DNA of 62,628 bases, filler included, from Candidatus Woesearchaeota archaeon (GTDB lineage: Archaea; Nanobdellota; Nanobdellia; Woesearchaeales; CG1-02-33-12), in the NCBI GenBank assembly GCA_018399355.1. It is 3 parts of 3 records of this genome, joined end to end, with 100 filler letters (N's around TTAATTAATTAA, not from the genome) between each part and the next. Parts side by side here need not be neighbours in the genome. Positions count along the whole stretch, not along the records: positions 42,541 to 62,628 come from JAGYOA010000014.1; 2 more parts are not named here. One strand, 5' to 3'. Position numbers and translations under genes: made by a program. The stretch's first letter is position 1; every line of letters begins with the position of its first letter. Of the stretch, positions 2,291 through 61,218 are shown one piece after another. The notes below the pieces were generated by a model that saw only the letters and a list, made by a program, of their open reading frames with translations, was not told the DNA's origin and did not search any database.

Positions 2291-2376
2291 TTTTTAAAGA
2301 TTTATTCTATCTTATAGTTACTAATTAGTAGTTAAAAAACGAAAGATTTAAATAGTCTAAAATCTGATTAACCAAT

Positions 2377-2964
2377 ATGAAAATAACTAAAGCATACCTT
2401 CAAAGGGCATACCCAAACGAAAGTCTAAGGCGTTATGCATATAGGGGAAATATGGATAATGAACATATTAGTGAACTTCCTCTTTATCTAGGTGAACTGA
2501 TTGCATATAGTGCTGCTTTAAACTACTTTAAGGAAAGAGAAGATTATAATCTTCTTGAAAAAATAGCTGGACTTGATTTTTACAATGGGTTTAAGGAAAT
2601 GGGAAAGCAAGATATTAAAATCAAACTAGGTAAAAAAATAATTGGTTATGAAAACATATTTCATTTTGTTAATAGTGTTAAAAAAAAGGCAAAAAATTCA
2701 GGCAACCTCACAGTTAGTGATGTAAGAACCAATGAGCTTTTGAATCCTAAATCTAATGATGCTGACTTTTATAGGAGGTTAGGTAAAGTTGATAAAGTTT
2801 TAATGAACAATTACAAAAATGTTTTAAAATTTATTTCAGAAGGAAGAGGAAGAGCTAAAAATGAATACCCTTCTAACTATGATAAGGGACTTTCAGAGAT
2901 TCTTTCAGAGAGCAATATCCCTGTTAATCCAAAAAAAGAAGTATACCAGCCAAAATTATTCTAG
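2377..2964 (+). CDS. Hypothetical protein
   Basis: 195-aa ORF with BRE/TATA (CGAAAGATTTAAATA) about 25 bp upstream; no recognised motif. Confidence 0.6.
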   Translation: MKITKAYLQRAYPNESLRRYAYRGNMDNEHISELPLYLGELIAYSAALNYFKEREDYNLLEKIAGLDFYNGFKEMGKQDIKIKLGKKIIGYENIFHFVNSVKKKAKNSGNLTVSDVRTNELLNPKSNDADFYRRLGKVDKVLMNNYKNVLKFISEGRGRAKNEYPSNYDKGLSEILSESNIPVNPKKEVYQPKLF

Positions 2965-4292
2965 GAATTTATTATCTTTAAAACTTTATCCCTCATTTCT
3001 TCCATCTTTTGTTTTGTTTTGGCCTCCAGATTAAGCCTTAATAATGGTTCTGTATTGGATGGCCTTACATTGAAGTGCCAGTCATCATATTCCACTGAAA
3101 CACCATCAATATGATAAATATTGCCGTCACTAAATTCCTTCTCTAGTTTTTTCATAACCCCTTTTTTATCTTCAACTTTTATATTTGTCTCGGGAATTAC
3201 AAAATATTTTTCAGTAGGGATTAACAGTTCTGAGATAGACTTGTCTTTCTTTGATAAAATTTCAATAACCTTAAGTGCTGTTACAATACCATCCTCAAAA
3301 TATGTGTCTTTGTATCTGTAAAAATAATGGCCGCTTATCTCACCAGAAAAAGGCGAGTCAAACTCACGCATTATTTGCTTGAAAAAAGGATGCCCTGCCC
3401 TTGAGAGCTTATACTTGCCGTTATTTTTTTCAATTATATCTCTCACAAACCAGCTTGCCCTCAAATCATAAACAATCATTGATTCAGGGTATTCTTTGAG
3501 TATTTCATCTGCTATAATCCCTGTAAGAAAACCTCCATCGATAAATTTCCCTTTGTTATCTATAAAAATAGACCTGTCAGCATCTCCATCCCACATGACC
3601 CCAAAGTCTGCCTTGTTTTCAATTACTTTTTTAGATGCCTCTTGTCTTGCTTCCTCAAGCATCGGATTTGGCGGATGGTTTGGAAACTCACCGTTTGGCT
3701 CAAGATACATTGGAATCATCTCGATGTTTGTTTTTTCAAAAATATTTTTTGCTGCGATTCCTGCCATCCCGTTTGATGCATCCATAACAACCTTCAATGA
3801 TTTTATGCTGTTTAAATCAACAAAACTTAAAGCAAAGTTTGTATAGTCATCAAGAATTTCTTTTTTTATTAACTGGCCTTTTTTTTCTGATTCCTTAAAT
3901 TCGTTTTTTTCATAAATCTTTTCTATGTCTTCAAGGCCATCACCTTCATTTATAGGTATTGATTTTTCCCTTACAATTTTTAATCCATTGTATTCTTTTG
4001 GATTATGGGATGCGGTTATCATTATCCCTCCATCATAACCGTATTCAACAACTGAAAAATAAAGCATTGGTGTGCTTGACAATCCAATATCAACGACATC
4101 ACATCCCTGTTCTGTTATTCCCTTTACTAAAGCTTCGAAAAGTGATTCAGAACTTGATCTTACATCCCGGCCTATGGCAATCCTCTTTGGCTTTAAGAAT
4201 TCAACATAGGCTTTTCCTATCCTGTAAACTTTATCTTCATCTAATTCCTGGGGATAAATCCCTCTTATATCATATGCCTTGAATATTCCCAT
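2961..4292 (-). CDS. Phosphomannomutase/phosphoglucomutase
   Basis: FKAYDIRG, TASHNP phosphoserine loop, DGDADR metal loop, RPSNTEP. Confidence 0.96.
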   Translation of the reverse strand: MGIFKAYDIRGIYPQELDEDKVYRIGKAYVEFLKPKRIAIGRDVRSSSESLFEALVKGITEQGCDVVDIGLSSTPMLYFSVVEYGYDGGIMITASHNPKEYNGLKIVREKSIPINEGDGLEDIEKIYEKNEFKESEKKGQLIKKEILDDYTNFALSFVDLNSIKSLKVVMDASNGMAGIAAKNIFEKTNIEMIPMYLEPNGEFPNHPPNPMLEEARQEASKKVIENKADFGVMWDGDADRSIFIDNKGKFIDGGFLTGIIADEILKEYPESMIVYDLRASWFVRDIIEKNNGKYKLSRAGHPFFKQIMREFDSPFSGEISGHYFYRYKDTYFEDGIVTALKVIEILSKKDKSISELLIPTEKYFVIPETNIKVEDKKGVMKKLEKEFSDGNIYHIDGVSVEYDDWHFNVRPSNTEPLLRLNLEAKTKQKMEEMRDKVLKIINS

Positions 4293-51411: not shown

Positions 51412-51661
51412 TTTTTTCTACCTTTTTTTCAAGTGATTCTTTTCTTAATTTTTTGCTTTCTCCATTCCAGTAATCATGCCCAGAGCCCTGAAAGTCAACC
51501 TTAACCCTGTTTTTCTTTCTACAATTTGGGCATTTAATTAACTTGTAATGAAACTCAGTTTCAAACTCTGAATCCCATGCCTTCCCATTAAACTCTGTTC
51601 CGCAATATGTGCATGTTTTTTTTGAATGTATCTCTTTTACTATATGATGAACTGCTGTAAT
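51404..51661 (-). CDS. 85-aa zinc-ribbon protein with probable ATT start (not in ORF track)
   Basis: AGGTGA SD then ATT; CTYC...CPNC; stop overlaps porB start; fills the porA-porB gap. Confidence 0.65.
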
Positions 51662-51671
51662 CTATATCACC

Positions 51672-52850
51672 TTAACTTAGCCACTCTGTCTGATTTGTTT
51701 TTCCTGTTCTTTCAAATGCCTTTTTTATATGCTCTTTGGTCACATCTCTTCCGCCAAGACCAGCAACAAAACCATTTATTATTGGCTTGTTTTCTTGATT
51801 GTAAAATGCTGACTTAAATTCCGTAAATAATGCCCCTTCATTTCCTAAGGATATATTACGGTCAATTACTGCTATGTTTTTGATGTTTTTGCAGCAGTTT
51901 GTTATCTCTTCTTTTGGAAATGGCCTGAAACATTTTATCTTGATTAGTCCTACTTTTTTCCCTTCTTTTCTCATTTCATCAACAACAACCCTTGCAGTTC
52001 CGCATATTGTTCCCATTGCCACAACAGCATATTCAGCGTCCTCAATTTTATAAGTTTCTAATACTCCATCTCCGTATCCGCGATTAAATGATTTTTTGAA
52101 TTCTGTGTTTGTTTTCTTTATAATTTCTTTTGCCCTTATTATTGCTTCATGTGTTTCTTGTCTGAACTCCATATAAGTGTCCGGAAACCCTATAGGTCCC
52201 ATTGTAACCGGCTTTTTAGGGTCTAGCTTAAATAGAGGATTGTATTTTGGAAGAAATTTATTAACATCTTTTTCATTTGGGATATCAACAGGCTCAAATA
52301 CATGGCTTAATGTAAATCCGTCAAGGCATACCATTACCGGAAGAAGAACTTCATGATTTTCCGCAATCTTGTATGCCTGTATTATTGTATCAAGGGCCTC
52401 CTGCGCAGATTCAATGTAAAGCTGTATCCACCCTGTATCTCTTTCTGATATGGAATCCTGGTGGTCGTTCCATATGTTTATAGGAGCGCTTAAAGCACGG
52501 TTAGCAACGGCCATAACAACCGGAAGCCTCATGCCTGCAACAATAAATAGAATCTCATGCATTAAAGCAAGGCCTTGTGATGCTGTTGCTGTGAATGTTC
52601 TTACTCCAGTTGCCTCAGATCCAATAGCTGCTGAAATAGCGCTGTGCTCTGACTCTACATGAATCATTTCTGCATTAAGCTCGCCGTTGTTGATAAACTC
52701 TGCAAGGCGCTCGACAATGTGCGTATCCACTGGTTAAGTATTTACTTAAACCAACTGTGGTGTTATAGGGTACATTGGTATTACCCTTGGTTCACATAGT
52801 TTAGCGCCCAAAGCAACGGCAGTGCTTGCCTCAATTACTTTCCTTACCAT
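51672..52850 (-). CDS. porA: Pyruvate:ferredoxin oxidoreductase alpha subunit, split by a 30-nt intron: join(52755..52850, 51672..52724), 382 aa
   Basis: Exon 1 MVRKVIEASTAVALGAKLCEPRVIPMYPITPQ; exon 2 THIVERLA...ESEHSA...TATASQGL. Confidence 0.92.
52725..52754 (-). other. Putative BHB/BHL-type mRNA intron in porA
   Basis: Minus-strand TTGGTTTAAGTAAATACTTAACCAGTGGAT; two in-frame TAA; CCAC/GTGG helix with AG^T and AT^A cut sites; removal restores YPITPQTH. Confidence 0.85.
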
Positions 52851-52924
52851 AAGATTAAGGCAATATAAGAAATATTTAAATATATTCTTTTTTACCATTT
52901 TAAATGTGGGTGTTAAACAGATAA

Positions 52925-54094
52925 ATGGAAAAGGTTGGGTTTAAAGGATTAATTAAGTACAATGTTTATATTAAATTAGATAAGGAAGCAGTAGTCTTAA
53001 TCCTTAACATAATAAAAAAATCGGGCCTTTTGTTGGATGAAGAAACAAAAGAAAATCTATATAGACTCTCAAAAAATAAAAAAATCTCATTAAAGTTTAT
53101 GAAAAAATTGTCTGTTCTATTAGATATTCCATATTCTTATTTTTATAAACATATCTTGCTGATAACTAGTGTAAAAAATACAAATATAGGAATAAGGGAT
53201 CCAAAACTTCCGTTTAATCTTGGTAATGTTTCTGGAGCAAGATTTATTGGTGCAATCATGGGGGATGGAGAAATAAACAGTCAAATTCAAGTAAGGTATA
53301 ACAACCAAAATAAGGATTTAATAAACATAATAATTCATTGTGCTAAAGATTTGTTTGGTGATGTTGATTATAAGATATACTTAAGGAAAGATAAAACATA
53401 CCAATTGCACTTCCCAAAAATCGTTGGGTTGATTATGATTGAATTTGGTTTAAAACACGGCTATAAATCAGAAAATAGCTATAAAATTCCTGATTTTATT
53501 TTCAAAAAAAATGAGAAAATAAAATCTGCATTAATAAGGCAATTTTTTAATGATGAGGGAAATGTAAGAATCAAAGACAGAAGATTGCAGGTTAAACAAA
53601 CATCAAAGGTTAAGGTTTCAAAAGTTGTTTGCAAAGAAAAATCAAATGAAATTGCACATAACTTTTTAATTGGTATAAAAAAATTGCTTAAGTCTTTGGG
53701 AATTGATTCAAATATAAGCCTTGGCGCTTATAGGTATAAAAAAGCTGATTGGGAGCTTTCTGTTTATGGAAAAGAAAATCTTGTTTTATATAAAGAGAAG
53801 ATTGGTTTTGATTTATATGAAAAAACAAAAAAGCTGGATGATGCAATTAAAAGCTATAAATTTCCTTCTGCCCCAAGAAATAAAAAGCTTGATTTTGCAA
53901 TAAATAAATTTAAAGAAGTTGAAAAAAAATATGGATATGTAACAAAATATCTTCTTGCTAAAGAATCAAAAAGATCTTTAAAAACAGCTGTTTACTATCT
54001 TGTTGATTTAAAAAAGATCAATAAAATAAAAGAAGTTGAAAGGCCAAAGGATAAAAAAGGCCATTTTTTACCAAGAAAATATAAGTCAGTTTAG
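52925..54094 (+). mobile_element. Free-standing two-motif LAGLIDADG homing endonuclease gene with flanking HTH-like domains
   Basis: ARFIGAIMGDGEI and SALIRQFFNDEGNV motifs; intein-EN-like LLKSLGIDS and YKEKIGF; no intein splicing termini; antisense within por operon. Confidence 0.85.
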
Positions 54095-54370
54095 CTACTT
54101 TTCCTCTTTCTTCATAATTATTGCCTTTACAGGACATTCATTTGCGCATATTCCACATCCTTTGCAATAATCATAATTAAACTCAAACTCTCCTTTCTTG
54201 TTTTTTCTTATAGCATTGTCAGGGCAGGAAGCCCAGCATTTTCCGCATTTTATGCACTTTTCCTGGTTTATCTCGGGCCTAAAAGATCGCCATCCACCTG
54301 TTTTGTTTTTTATAGTGGAGCCTGGCTCATCTATTACCGCTCCTATGCTAACCTTTTTTTTCTTGTTCAT
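54095..54370 (-). CDS. porD: Pyruvate:ferredoxin oxidoreductase delta subunit
   Basis: KTGGWRSFRP; CIKCGKCWASCP and YCKGCGICANECP. Confidence 0.96.
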   Translation of the reverse strand: MNKKKKVSIGAVIDEPGSTIKNKTGGWRSFRPEINQEKCIKCGKCWASCPDNAIRKNKKGEFEFNYDYCKGCGICANECPVKAIIMKKEEK

Positions 54371-59823: not shown

Positions 59824-61218
59824 ATGAAAGAAAAAATTCAAAAAATAAATGATTATGAATGGCTTTTGCCTAAAAGTGCAAGAGATAAGATGAATGTAGA
59901 TGCAAAAATATTTGCAAATAAAAAAATCCTTGATGATATTGAGGATGATGCTGTACAGCAGCTAACTAATGTTGCTTGTCTTCCAGGTGTTATTGAGCCT
60001 GTTATTGGATTGCCGGATATGCACTTCGGCTATGGGTTGCCGATGGGTGCTGTAAGCGCATTTGATTCTGAAAATGGGGTTATATCTTCTGGATTGTGTG
60101 GTTTTGATATAAACTGCGGAATTAATTCAATAAGAACGAACTTAACTTATGATGAAGTAAAGGAAAAATTAAATGAACTTATCCCTGCTTTGTTTAATGC
60201 TGTTCCATGCGGAGTAGGCTCAAAGGGAAGGCTAAGATTAAATTATGAGCAACTTAATGGGGTTATGACCCGTGGATTAAACTGGGCTGTTGAAAATGGT
60301 TATGGGACAAAAAAAGATATTGAAAATACAGAAGAAAAAGGATGTATGCCTGATGCAGACCCTTCAAAGGTTTCTGATTTGGCAAAGAAAAGAGGGCTTC
60401 CACAACTAGGAACACTGGGGGCAGGAAATCATTTTCTTGAGATACAGAAAGTGAGTGATATTTATGATGAAAAATTTGCAAAAAAACATGGCATAGTTGA
60501 TAAAGACCAGGTTATGATAATGCTTCATTGCGGTAGCCGCGGTTTAGGTCATCAGATTGCAAGCGATTATCTAAAAATACATGAAAAGGCCGTAAGAAAG
60601 TACAACATATGGATTCCAGACAGGCAGCTTGCATGCGCTCCTGTTAATTCTCAGGAAGGCCAGGATTATTATGCTGCAATGAAATGTGCTGTTAATTATT
60701 CATTTACAAACAGGCTTGTTATGACCCATTGGATAAGGGAAACATTTGAGAAAGTTTTCAAAAAATCATGGGAAGAAATGGATATGCAGACAGTTTATGG
60801 AATCTGCCATAATATTGTAAAATTAGAAGAGATAAAAGGGAAAAAATATTATGTACACAGAAAGGGAGCAACAAGGGCCTTTCCTAATTTGCCTGTTATT
60901 GTTGCAGGAACGATGGGGACTGCATCATATATTTGTAAGGGAACAGAAACTGCACTAGATAAAACATTTGGAAGCTCTTGCCACGGCTCTGGAAGGGCTA
61001 TGAGCAGGAATGCTGCACTGAAGAAATTCAGGGGAGAAGAAGTAAATGACCAACTAAAAGTCAAAGGAATAATAGGCAAGGCAGGCAACTGGAAATCATT
61101 TGCAGAGGAAGCCCCTGACTGTTATAAAGATGTTGAGCAGGTTGTTGATTCTGTTGATAAAGCAGGAATTTCTCCTAAGGTTGTAAGAATGAGGCCAATG
61201 GGCGTTCTAAAGGGTTAA
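59824..61218 (+). CDS. rtcB: RNA-splicing ligase RtcB
   Basis: PDMHFGYG.P.G, GFDINCG, GTLGAGNHFLE, HRKGATRA, SSCHGSGR, EEAP..YK. Confidence 0.97.
   Translation: MKEKIQKINDYEWLLPKSARDKMNVDAKIFANKKILDDIEDDAVQQLTNVACLPGVIEPVIGLPDMHFGYGLPMGAVSAFDSENGVISSGLCGFDINCGINSIRTNLTYDEVKEKLNELIPALFNAVPCGVGSKGRLRLNYEQLNGVMTRGLNWAVENGYGTKKDIENTEEKGCMPDADPSKVSDLAKKRGLPQLGTLGAGNHFLEIQKVSDIYDEKFAKKHGIVDKDQVMIMLHCGSRGLGHQIASDYLKIHEKAVRKYNIWIPDRQLACAPVNSQEGQDYYAAMKCAVNYSFTNRLVMTHWIRETFEKVFKKSWEEMDMQTVYGICHNIVKLEEIKGKKYYVHRKGATRAFPNLPVIVAGTMGTASYICKGTETALDKTFGSSCHGSGRAMSRNAALKKFRGEEVNDQLKVKGIIGKAGNWKSFAEEAPDCYKDVEQVVDSVDKAGISPKVVRMRPMGVLKG

Follow-up and report, generated by a model that had tools for sequence, protein, structure and literature searches.

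We analyzed a window of 62,628 nucleotides (nt) of joined DNA from Candidatus Woesearchaeota archaeon (GCA_018399355.1), in which a free-standing gene for a LAGLIDADG homing endonuclease lies beside a 30-nt insert in the gene porA, and we ask whether the two belong to one mobile element. The source genome is 0.92 Mb in size and 97.5% complete, and the locus lies entirely within its contig G000:C6. Positions 1 to 21505 of the window derive from contig C4 and the final 20088 nt from contig C6; a window coordinate equals the G000:C6 coordinate plus 42540, and no feature is linked across the joins.

The porGDAB operon runs along the minus strand and is split by the endonuclease gene, which is wedged between porD and porA. 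Downstream of porG (54975-54367), porD (54370-54095) encodes the ferredoxin-like delta subunit. The porD stop codon lies immediately next to that of the endonuclease gene, and this point is the left edge of the cassette discussed below. The endonuclease gene (52925-54094, plus strand) encodes 389 amino acids (aa) and matches Pfam LAGLIDADG_3 (E 2.7e-7, above the cutoff). A divergent intergenic region of 74 nt (52851-52924) separates its start from that of porA, whose product is identified by Pfam as the alpha subunit of pyruvate:ferredoxin oxidoreductase. Exon 1 of porA (52850-52755, minus strand) comprises 32 codons, reading MVRK...YPITPQ, and is followed by the insert TTGGTTTAAGTAAATACTTAACCAGTGGAT (52754-52725), which contains two in-frame TAA codons. 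Exon 2 (52724-51672) starts with THIVE and consists of 350 codons plus a stop codon, with matches to POR_N (E 9e-67) and PFOR_II (E 2e-34). The endonuclease gene starts 171 nt from the insert and lies outside it, and the insert sits inside the PITPQT block that was found in all 30 porA loci examined; every coordinate of this arrangement given in a preliminary description of the locus was confirmed. Genome searches recovered the endonuclease gene and the insert once each in the source genome, and DNA contigs from other metagenomes have the same layout.

In relatives that have neither the endonuclease gene nor the insert, the porD stop codon overlaps the porA start codon (ATGA). In the 74-nt divergent region of the window, about 30 nt before the porA ATG, TTTAAATA (52875-52882) forms a palindromic box of the TATA type, and TTTAAATATTT is kept in all five aligned endonuclease-bearing loci. 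These features suggest that the region is a bidirectional promoter brought in with the cassette; scans for sigma-70 promoters and terminators are not applicable to archaea. Separately, ATGGTAAAAAAG (52887-52898, minus strand) lies in frame with the porA start, 48 nt ahead of it, and is similar to the sequence with which porA begins in relatives (ATGGTGAAAAAAG...). It may be left over from a duplication of the gene start, with the two copies now on either side of the TATA-like box.

To what extent the insert behaves as an intron can be judged from its variants. Among the 30 porA loci sampled from 101 relatives, 8 are interrupted at the identical site (YPITPQ / THIVE) and 22 are uninterrupted. 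With additional carriers taken from metagenomes and wider genome searches, 11 distinct variants were collected (two of 27 nt, two of 29 nt, five of 30 nt, one of 31 nt, and one of 32 nt), all inserted between the same two codons. Four of them have a length that is not divisible by three and shift the frame; read-through therefore cannot rescue porA, and removal from the RNA is required. Common to all variants are an exon 1 ending in CCACA(G/A), an insert ending in GTGGA(T/G/A), and an exon 2 beginning with AC. All 11 fold freely into a 4-bp helix (CCAC/GUGG), a bulge, and an inner hairpin. The helix, in which exon CCAC pairs with intron GUGG, is invariant, and six of the seven hairpin pairs show compensatory changes on both sides (RNAalifold, unrefined MAFFT alignment). 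The 5' bulge (AG|U) has 3 nt in nine variants, 2 nt in that of genome G038, and an irregular form in that of G184; on the 3' side, the trinucleotide A(U/G/A)A, with the cut in AU|A, occurs without being enclosed. If cut behind the second nucleotide of each bulge (AG|U, AU|A), all 11 variants yield CCACAG|ACGCAC, which encodes YPITPQ|THIVE, and regain the reading frame. The exon junction proposed earlier, ATAACACCACAG|ACGCAC, is this frame-restoring junction, and a cut between the second and third bulge residues is also the rule given for the cbf5 intron (PMC2738675). In addition, the Pro codon within the helix is CCA in 11/11 intron-bearing alleles compared with 6/22 intron-less alleles (Fisher 9e-5, with kin that are not independent). 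What tells against an intron is that the outer helix closing the 3' bulge is absent or has only 1-2 pairs, which falls short of the canonical hBHBh' form as defined in PMC7714728, where the exon-side bulge is closed by an outer helix (h) with two or more Watson-Crick pairs. The missing outer helix makes the motif a relaxed one (HBh' type) rather than a canonical one, and the insert is best read as a relaxed bulge-helix-bulge (BHB) mini-intron. A search of Rfam returned only chance matches below threshold (U12, 23.7 bits against a cutoff of 53).

The insert might instead not be an intron at all. It could divide a split gene, made of a 34-aa peptide and a 352-aa protein that restarts at the in-frame GTG of GTGGAT, or mark a pseudogene, or be skipped by the ribosome as in bypassing of T4 gene 60. 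The GTG is indeed in frame with exon 2 in 11/11 variants, reading on from exon 1 meets a stop codon after at most three codons in all of them, and a 50-nt bypass insert linked to MobA offers a precedent (bioRxiv 10.1101/2022.08.31.505936). However, a split gene has no need for an invariant CCAC/GUGG pairing, a fixed CCA codon, or a covarying hairpin; no ribosome-binding motif precedes the GTG, and the break would hit the most conserved block of the protein. Bypassing is countered by the lack of matching take-off and landing codons in most variants. As to a pseudogene, exon 2 is under strong purifying selection, with a ratio of nonsynonymous to synonymous divergence (dN/dS) of 0.06-0.13, and the operon is otherwise intact in all carriers. 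We regard these non-intron explanations as very improbable.

From the anatomy of the insert, we infer that the porA intron is spliced from the RNA by host enzymes. The preliminary description named EndA and RtcB for this role, and the gene content bears it out to the extent that both genes are present in the source genome; splicing of porA by them is a prediction. The RtcB RNA ligase gene (59959-61215, plus strand; PF01139, E 7e-158, at G000:C6:17419-18675) lies 7 kb downstream of the locus. The only EndA match in the genome, at G000:C56:29057-29182 (L052), is truncated where its contig stops, which hides the subunit type. As described in PMC5829648, DPANN EndAs with an L3 loop are associated with disrupted tRNA genes. 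The in-frame stop codons of the 11 variants, a TAA as the third codon in nine of them and a TAG as the first codon in the other two, may bring translation of unspliced RNA to an early end.

The endonuclease itself has orthologs in 10 lineages that are about 50-90% identical to the window protein. Two motifs, IMGDGE (D114, E116) and QF[FY]NDEG (D210, E211), are invariant in 10/10 lineages and read FIGAIMGDGE and IRQFFNDEG in the window. We take D114 and E211 to be the catalytic acids, from the usual position of the catalytic acidic residue at the end of each LAGLIDADG motif. An AlphaFold model (predicted local distance difference test score, pLDDT, 89.7) has a double LAGLIDADG core at about residues 100-300, with the alpha-beta-beta-alpha-beta-beta-alpha double-domain fold of the family, flanked by extra N-terminal and C-terminal helical domains that resemble helix-turn-helix (HTH) domains; Pfam HTH matches fall below the cutoff at both ends of one paralog. 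Foldseek matched the model with a probability of 1.00 to TliVMA, PI-PfuI, I-DmoI, and I-Tsp061I, which are LAGLIDADG enzymes of archaeal inteins and introns, with WhiA at rank 5 (E 1e-6), and a sequence-profile search of the PDB with the endonuclease alignment gave no match at E <= 1. The endonuclease gene is under purifying selection, with a dN/dS of 0.11-0.18 across the seven pairs with unsaturated synonymous divergence (dS), compared with the values given above for porA exon 2. Among the 17 endonuclease-bearing loci described below, no stop codon or frameshift interrupts the gene, which in G082 is split over two contig ends. Overall, the enzyme looks catalytically intact. The open reading frame (ORF) of genome G140 (L074 1705-2976) runs about 35 codons beyond the usual C terminus into a hydrophobic tail, and its stop codon has probably been lost. 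The viral contigs searched held no relative of the endonuclease.

The distribution of the two elements links them closely. The endonuclease-bearing loci come from G000, G001, G012, G038, G082, G140, and G311, nine metagenome contigs, and one further metagenome-assembled genome (MAG), and represent 10 lineages. As the preliminary description had anticipated for relatives, the porA insert accompanies the gene at 17/17 of these loci, and no locus (0/17) has the gene without the insert. At all 17, the gene lies in the porD-porA interval, head-to-head with porA and about 65-80 nt from its start. Five of the 101 genomes searched have it (G000, G001, G012, G038, and G082), and an order-wide search found it in 5/401 genomes, each of which (5/5) also has the insert. 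The reverse does not hold: the insert occurs without the endonuclease gene in at least four genomes, namely, G002, G006, and G009, which belong to one family, and G184. This count is a lower bound, as the order-wide intron pattern (8/401 genomes) required GTGGA(T/G) and missed the GTGGAA of G311. Genome G011 was considered as a further intron-only case and rejected; its sequence breaks off within exon 1, where the contig stops, and the endonuclease gene is present on the metagenome contig L054, which matches G011 at 100% identity throughout exon 2 and the sequence downstream of it. The 60-nt porD-porA spacers of G002 and G009 show no convincing similarity to the cassette that would indicate endonuclease remnants, and the 480-nt spacer of G184 has no better blastx match to the endonuclease than E >= 1.4. 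Judged by eye, the ORFs of the G184 spacer are tautomerase-like and CutA-like. One contig of metagenome run X4 joins 52908 to 54120 and skips approximately the endonuclease gene (52909-54119). With only 24 nt on one side, this joint was not used, and it can do no more than hint that the sample holds an endonuclease-free allele.

In a tree of porA exon 2 (36 rows), the intron state changes at least 11 times and the endonuclease state at least 10 times, with carriers scattered. Forcing the window family and all other carriers into one clade is 82 log-likelihood units worse (p = 0.0003 in the approximately unbiased [AU] test).

Comparisons of closely related alleles point to the units of exchange. 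Allele L058, which has the cassette, and G008, which has neither element, are 91-94% identical in porD, exon 2, and porB, and L058 is longer by 1257 nt, inserted exactly behind the porD stop codon. Their exon 1 sequences differ at 26/96 nt, nearly all synonymously, and in exon 2 the differences fall at +6, +9, +12, +15, and +18, with the next at +108 (Fisher 1e-6). L054 and L055 are 98.6-98.9% identical across the endonuclease gene and exon 1 compared with 92-95% in the flanks, and their dS is 0.041 for the endonuclease gene versus 0.28 for porA exon 2. For G000 and G001, the imbalance is reversed, with a dS of 0.32 for the endonuclease gene versus 0.16. A shorter tract is seen in the intron-only allele of G006, which equals intron-less G007 upstream of about -50 (0 differences over 41 nt) and equals intron-only G009 from -48 to +212, intron included (4 differences over 260 nt, compared with about 10% elsewhere). 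The three inferred tracts overlap only from about -48 to +18, a segment that includes the intron site, and the G006 tract excludes the porD/porA junction at -96. Gene-conversion tracts around the site had been proposed as something to look for, and these three mosaics have the appearance of such tracts. They imply that the endonuclease gene, exon 1, and the intron were exchanged as a block and that the intron can also move on a short tract alone. That the three form one linked mobile cassette is, as judged from the alleles, well supported. Across the families concerned, the porD/porA junction is variable and the intron site is invariant, and cassette-plus, intron-only, and empty alleles occur naturally on nearly identical backbones.

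These observations bear on whether the cassette moves at all. The endonuclease gene and the intron could be old linked features, inherited vertically with many losses, in which homing has ended and the LAGLIDADG protein is domesticated, for example as a DNA-binding regulator similar to WhiA or merely as the source of the porAB promoter. Such an origin fits the low dN/dS in all pairs and the lack of pseudogenes in 17 loci, the extra HTH-like domains and the presence of WhiA among the structural matches, the conserved TATA-like box ahead of porA, and an endonuclease divergence that roughly follows that of porA (79/80% and 58/64%). It fits poorly with the invariance of both catalytic acids, which WhiA has presumably lost. 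It is also at odds with the 10 or more changes of endonuclease state on the porA tree and the rejection of a single clade, with the presence and absence of the cassette on backbones that are 91-94% identical, and with the dS discordance between the endonuclease gene and its flanks in both directions. A dead enzyme conserved by vertical descent had been named beforehand as one outcome that would speak against homing; instead, the enzyme looks intact, and its distribution is patchy and not simply vertical. We consider domestication improbable, although less so than the non-intron explanations of the insert.

Our preferred reading, which we place at a probability of roughly 0.55, is that the por operon of these Woesearchaeal (DPANN) archaea carries a composite selfish cassette that spreads by homing and whose intron is spliced by the host. 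The cassette would be made up of the endonuclease gene with a divergent promoter of its own, porA codons 1 to 32, and, at the closing end of the block, a BHB mini-intron of 27-32 nt. EndA and RtcB, the tRNA-splicing enzymes of the host, would excise the intron from the porA mRNA, and the gene would stay functional. The enzyme would introduce a double-strand break into por alleles that lack the cassette, and repair off the cassette allele would copy the intron and exon 1, together with the endonuclease gene if the tract is long enough. Short repair tracts would leave intron-only alleles. The recognition site is predicted to extend across the point of intron insertion, within the conserved codons for YPITPQ|THIVE, such that the intron splits the site and protects its carrier. 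For this last part, in which the enzyme cuts at the intron site and the intron confers protection (collaborative homing), we see about even odds.

The enzyme could be active and mobile and yet cut elsewhere in the por region, at the junction of the porD stop and porA start or in exon 1, with the intron, 96-126 nt away, as a co-converted passenger that gives no immunity. MobE of T4 provides the precedent for such trans-homing, in that it mobilizes the nrdB intron without cutting at the intron site, according to PMC2790892. Also in favor of trans-homing, the cassette is inserted exactly at the porD/porA junction, where it abolishes the ATGA overlap, the intron occurs by itself in some alleles (G002, G006, G009, and G184), and the leuS, glmS, and cysS neighbors of endonuclease paralogs have no intron (0/6). 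However, the intron is missing from none of the 17 endonuclease loci, although its state flips between alleles as close as those of G006 and G007. The G006 tract (-48 to +212) holds the intron and not the junction, and the junction differs so widely among cassette families that it would be a poor long-term target. We judge trans-homing to be unlikely, albeit the most serious of the competing explanations.

Several points weigh against the selfish-cassette reading as a whole. The tree was a quick one, and the group constrained in the AU test was chosen after inspection of it. The tracts were read post hoc from few related sequences, and recombination seems frequent operon-wide. Because kin are not independent, the support is smaller than the co-occurrence count suggests. 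The endonuclease gene, by its insertion, already breaks up the porD/porA junction, and this alone could give immunity with no need of an intron. The lack of decay in 17 loci and a dN/dS as low as that of porA would fit a protein that is useful to the host as well as they fit frequent homing. Finally, all six leuS, glmS, and cysS genes beside paralogs are single, uninterrupted ORFs, which suggests that the LAGLIDADG family here can persist without a protective intron.

These distant paralogs (26-34% identity) are free-standing and lie directly upstream of leuS in three genomes (L007, L008, and L009), glmS in two (L015 and L018), and cysS in one (L016), in different families; other neighbors are EndA (L014), DNA ligase (L020), and Nre (L006). 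They revise two expectations of the preliminary description. Archaeal LAGLIDADG genes were held to lie normally inside rRNA introns or inteins, but free-standing copies are not unusual in this order. Other genes beside such copies were expected to be worth checking for interruptions, and with 0/6 interrupted, the two-part layout is not general for the protein family. The LAGLIDADG ORF of genome G089 (L080 1211-2383) lies upstream of glmS (2317-4155), and its first 33 or so codons duplicate the glmS start (MCGIIAYKG...), with a complete glmS following; this cassette seems to have taken over the old glmS start and supplied a new one. Inteins are found as well. The only other LAGLIDADG match in the source genome, a domain pair at G000:C23:23745-24284 inside a 1260-aa ORF, is probably an intein, and the RtcB gene of the relative G095 (L017 766-3720) carries an intein with a LAGLIDADG domain.

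The remainder of the por operon includes porB (51411-50503, minus strand) and, between porA and porB, a small zinc-ribbon ORF with two CxxC pairs (51413-51661, minus strand). This ORF has no ATG, GTG, or TTG start and opens with ATT straight after a TAG, 5 nt after GGTGAT. Homologs with 33-63% identity occupy the same position in 18/20 por loci examined.

Among the open-access papers and preprints searched, work on archaeal mRNA targets of BHB splicing concerned cbf5 and one Haloferax mRNA substrate. According to PMC2738675, cbf5 is the only established family of spliced protein-gene introns in archaea, and their origin is called unclear; one further mRNA substrate of the splicing endonuclease is mentioned in PMC7714728. 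The same body of papers, searched for BHB introns in protein genes, splicing in DPANN, and free-standing archaeal LAGLIDADG genes, yielded nothing on porA, on mRNA introns of DPANN, or on an archaeal endonuclease-intron pair. Given the predicted intron, porA is a second protein gene that holds a BHB-type intron, unrelated to cbf5 and from another superphylum, and the neighboring homing endonuclease is a plausible vehicle for the spread of mini-introns into archaeal protein genes. If the enzyme does cut at the intron site, the por cassette would be the first cellular and the first archaeal counterpart of phage collaborative homing, with a host-spliced rather than a self-splicing intron, and a direct test of the origin and movement of archaeal mRNA introns would need only one protein and two DNA substrates. 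The por locus lends itself well to such work owing to the natural cassette-plus, intron-only, and empty alleles on nearly identical backbones. More broadly, and with somewhat less than even confidence, we suggest that free-standing LAGLIDADG cassettes act generally to create BHB mini-introns and to spread them among archaeal protein genes. The enzyme would target an invariant coding site, and the cassette would supply a new gene end together with a promoter. At the seam, the intron would be an immunity patch that the host tolerates because its tRNA-splicing enzymes excise it, and intron-only alleles would be fossils left after loss of the endonuclease, which would explain orphan introns such as that of cbf5.

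Several known systems share parts of this design. Archaeal rRNA BHB introns that encode I-DmoI and I-Tsp061I have the enzyme fold and the splicing machinery in common with the por system. Their endonuclease genes are contained in the intron, whereas the por endonuclease lies outside, on the opposite strand, 171 nt from an mRNA mini-intron. For the insert of T4 gene 60, Bonocora et al. are said to have described, in 2011, an immunity role against MobA. The pairing of that 50-nt insert with MobA, as presented in bioRxiv 10.1101/2022.08.31.505936, likewise combines a short noncoding insert in an essential gene with an adjacent endonuclease gene in one mobile cassette, but the gene 60 insert is skipped by the ribosome, whereas the porA insert has the anatomy of an RNA-spliced intron. 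T4 MobE and the nrdB intron, with its defunct I-TevIII, resemble the por locus in having a neighboring free-standing endonuclease, a co-converted nonautonomous intron, and a close spacing that matters (PMC2790892). By that account, MobE does not cut at the nrdB intron site; the predicted por cut site is the intron site. In the WHO elements of yeast FBA1, as described in PMC7282813, the endonuclease gene also lies outside the target gene, and integration swaps one end of the target for the copy of the element, as with porA exon 1 here. Unlike the por cassette, WHO elements replace the 3' end, use no intron, are eukaryotic, and derive from an intein (PMC7282813). The cbf5 intron of Crenarchaeota is, in the account of PMC2738675, also short (16-44 bp) and of the relaxed BHB type; it interrupts a protein gene at a conserved codon, shows gains and losses between relatives, and follows the same cut rule. 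Gene and phylum differ, however, and that account gives the cbf5 introns no associated endonuclease. A parallel in proposed logic is the collaborative homing of F-CphI and the ORF-less psbA group I intron of cyanophage S-PM2 (Zeng, Bonocora and Shub 2009, as cited in PMC6083498), where a free-standing endonuclease gene also adjoins a conserved gene that holds an endonuclease-less intron at a conserved site, and where the intron, as would be the case at porA, blocks self-cleavage while the enzyme mobilizes both. As far as that source describes it, the S-PM2 system belongs to a phage and combines a self-splicing group I intron with an Endo VII-like enzyme, whereas the por system resides on a cellular archaeal chromosome and would pair a LAGLIDADG enzyme with a protein-spliced BHB intron of 27-32 nt.

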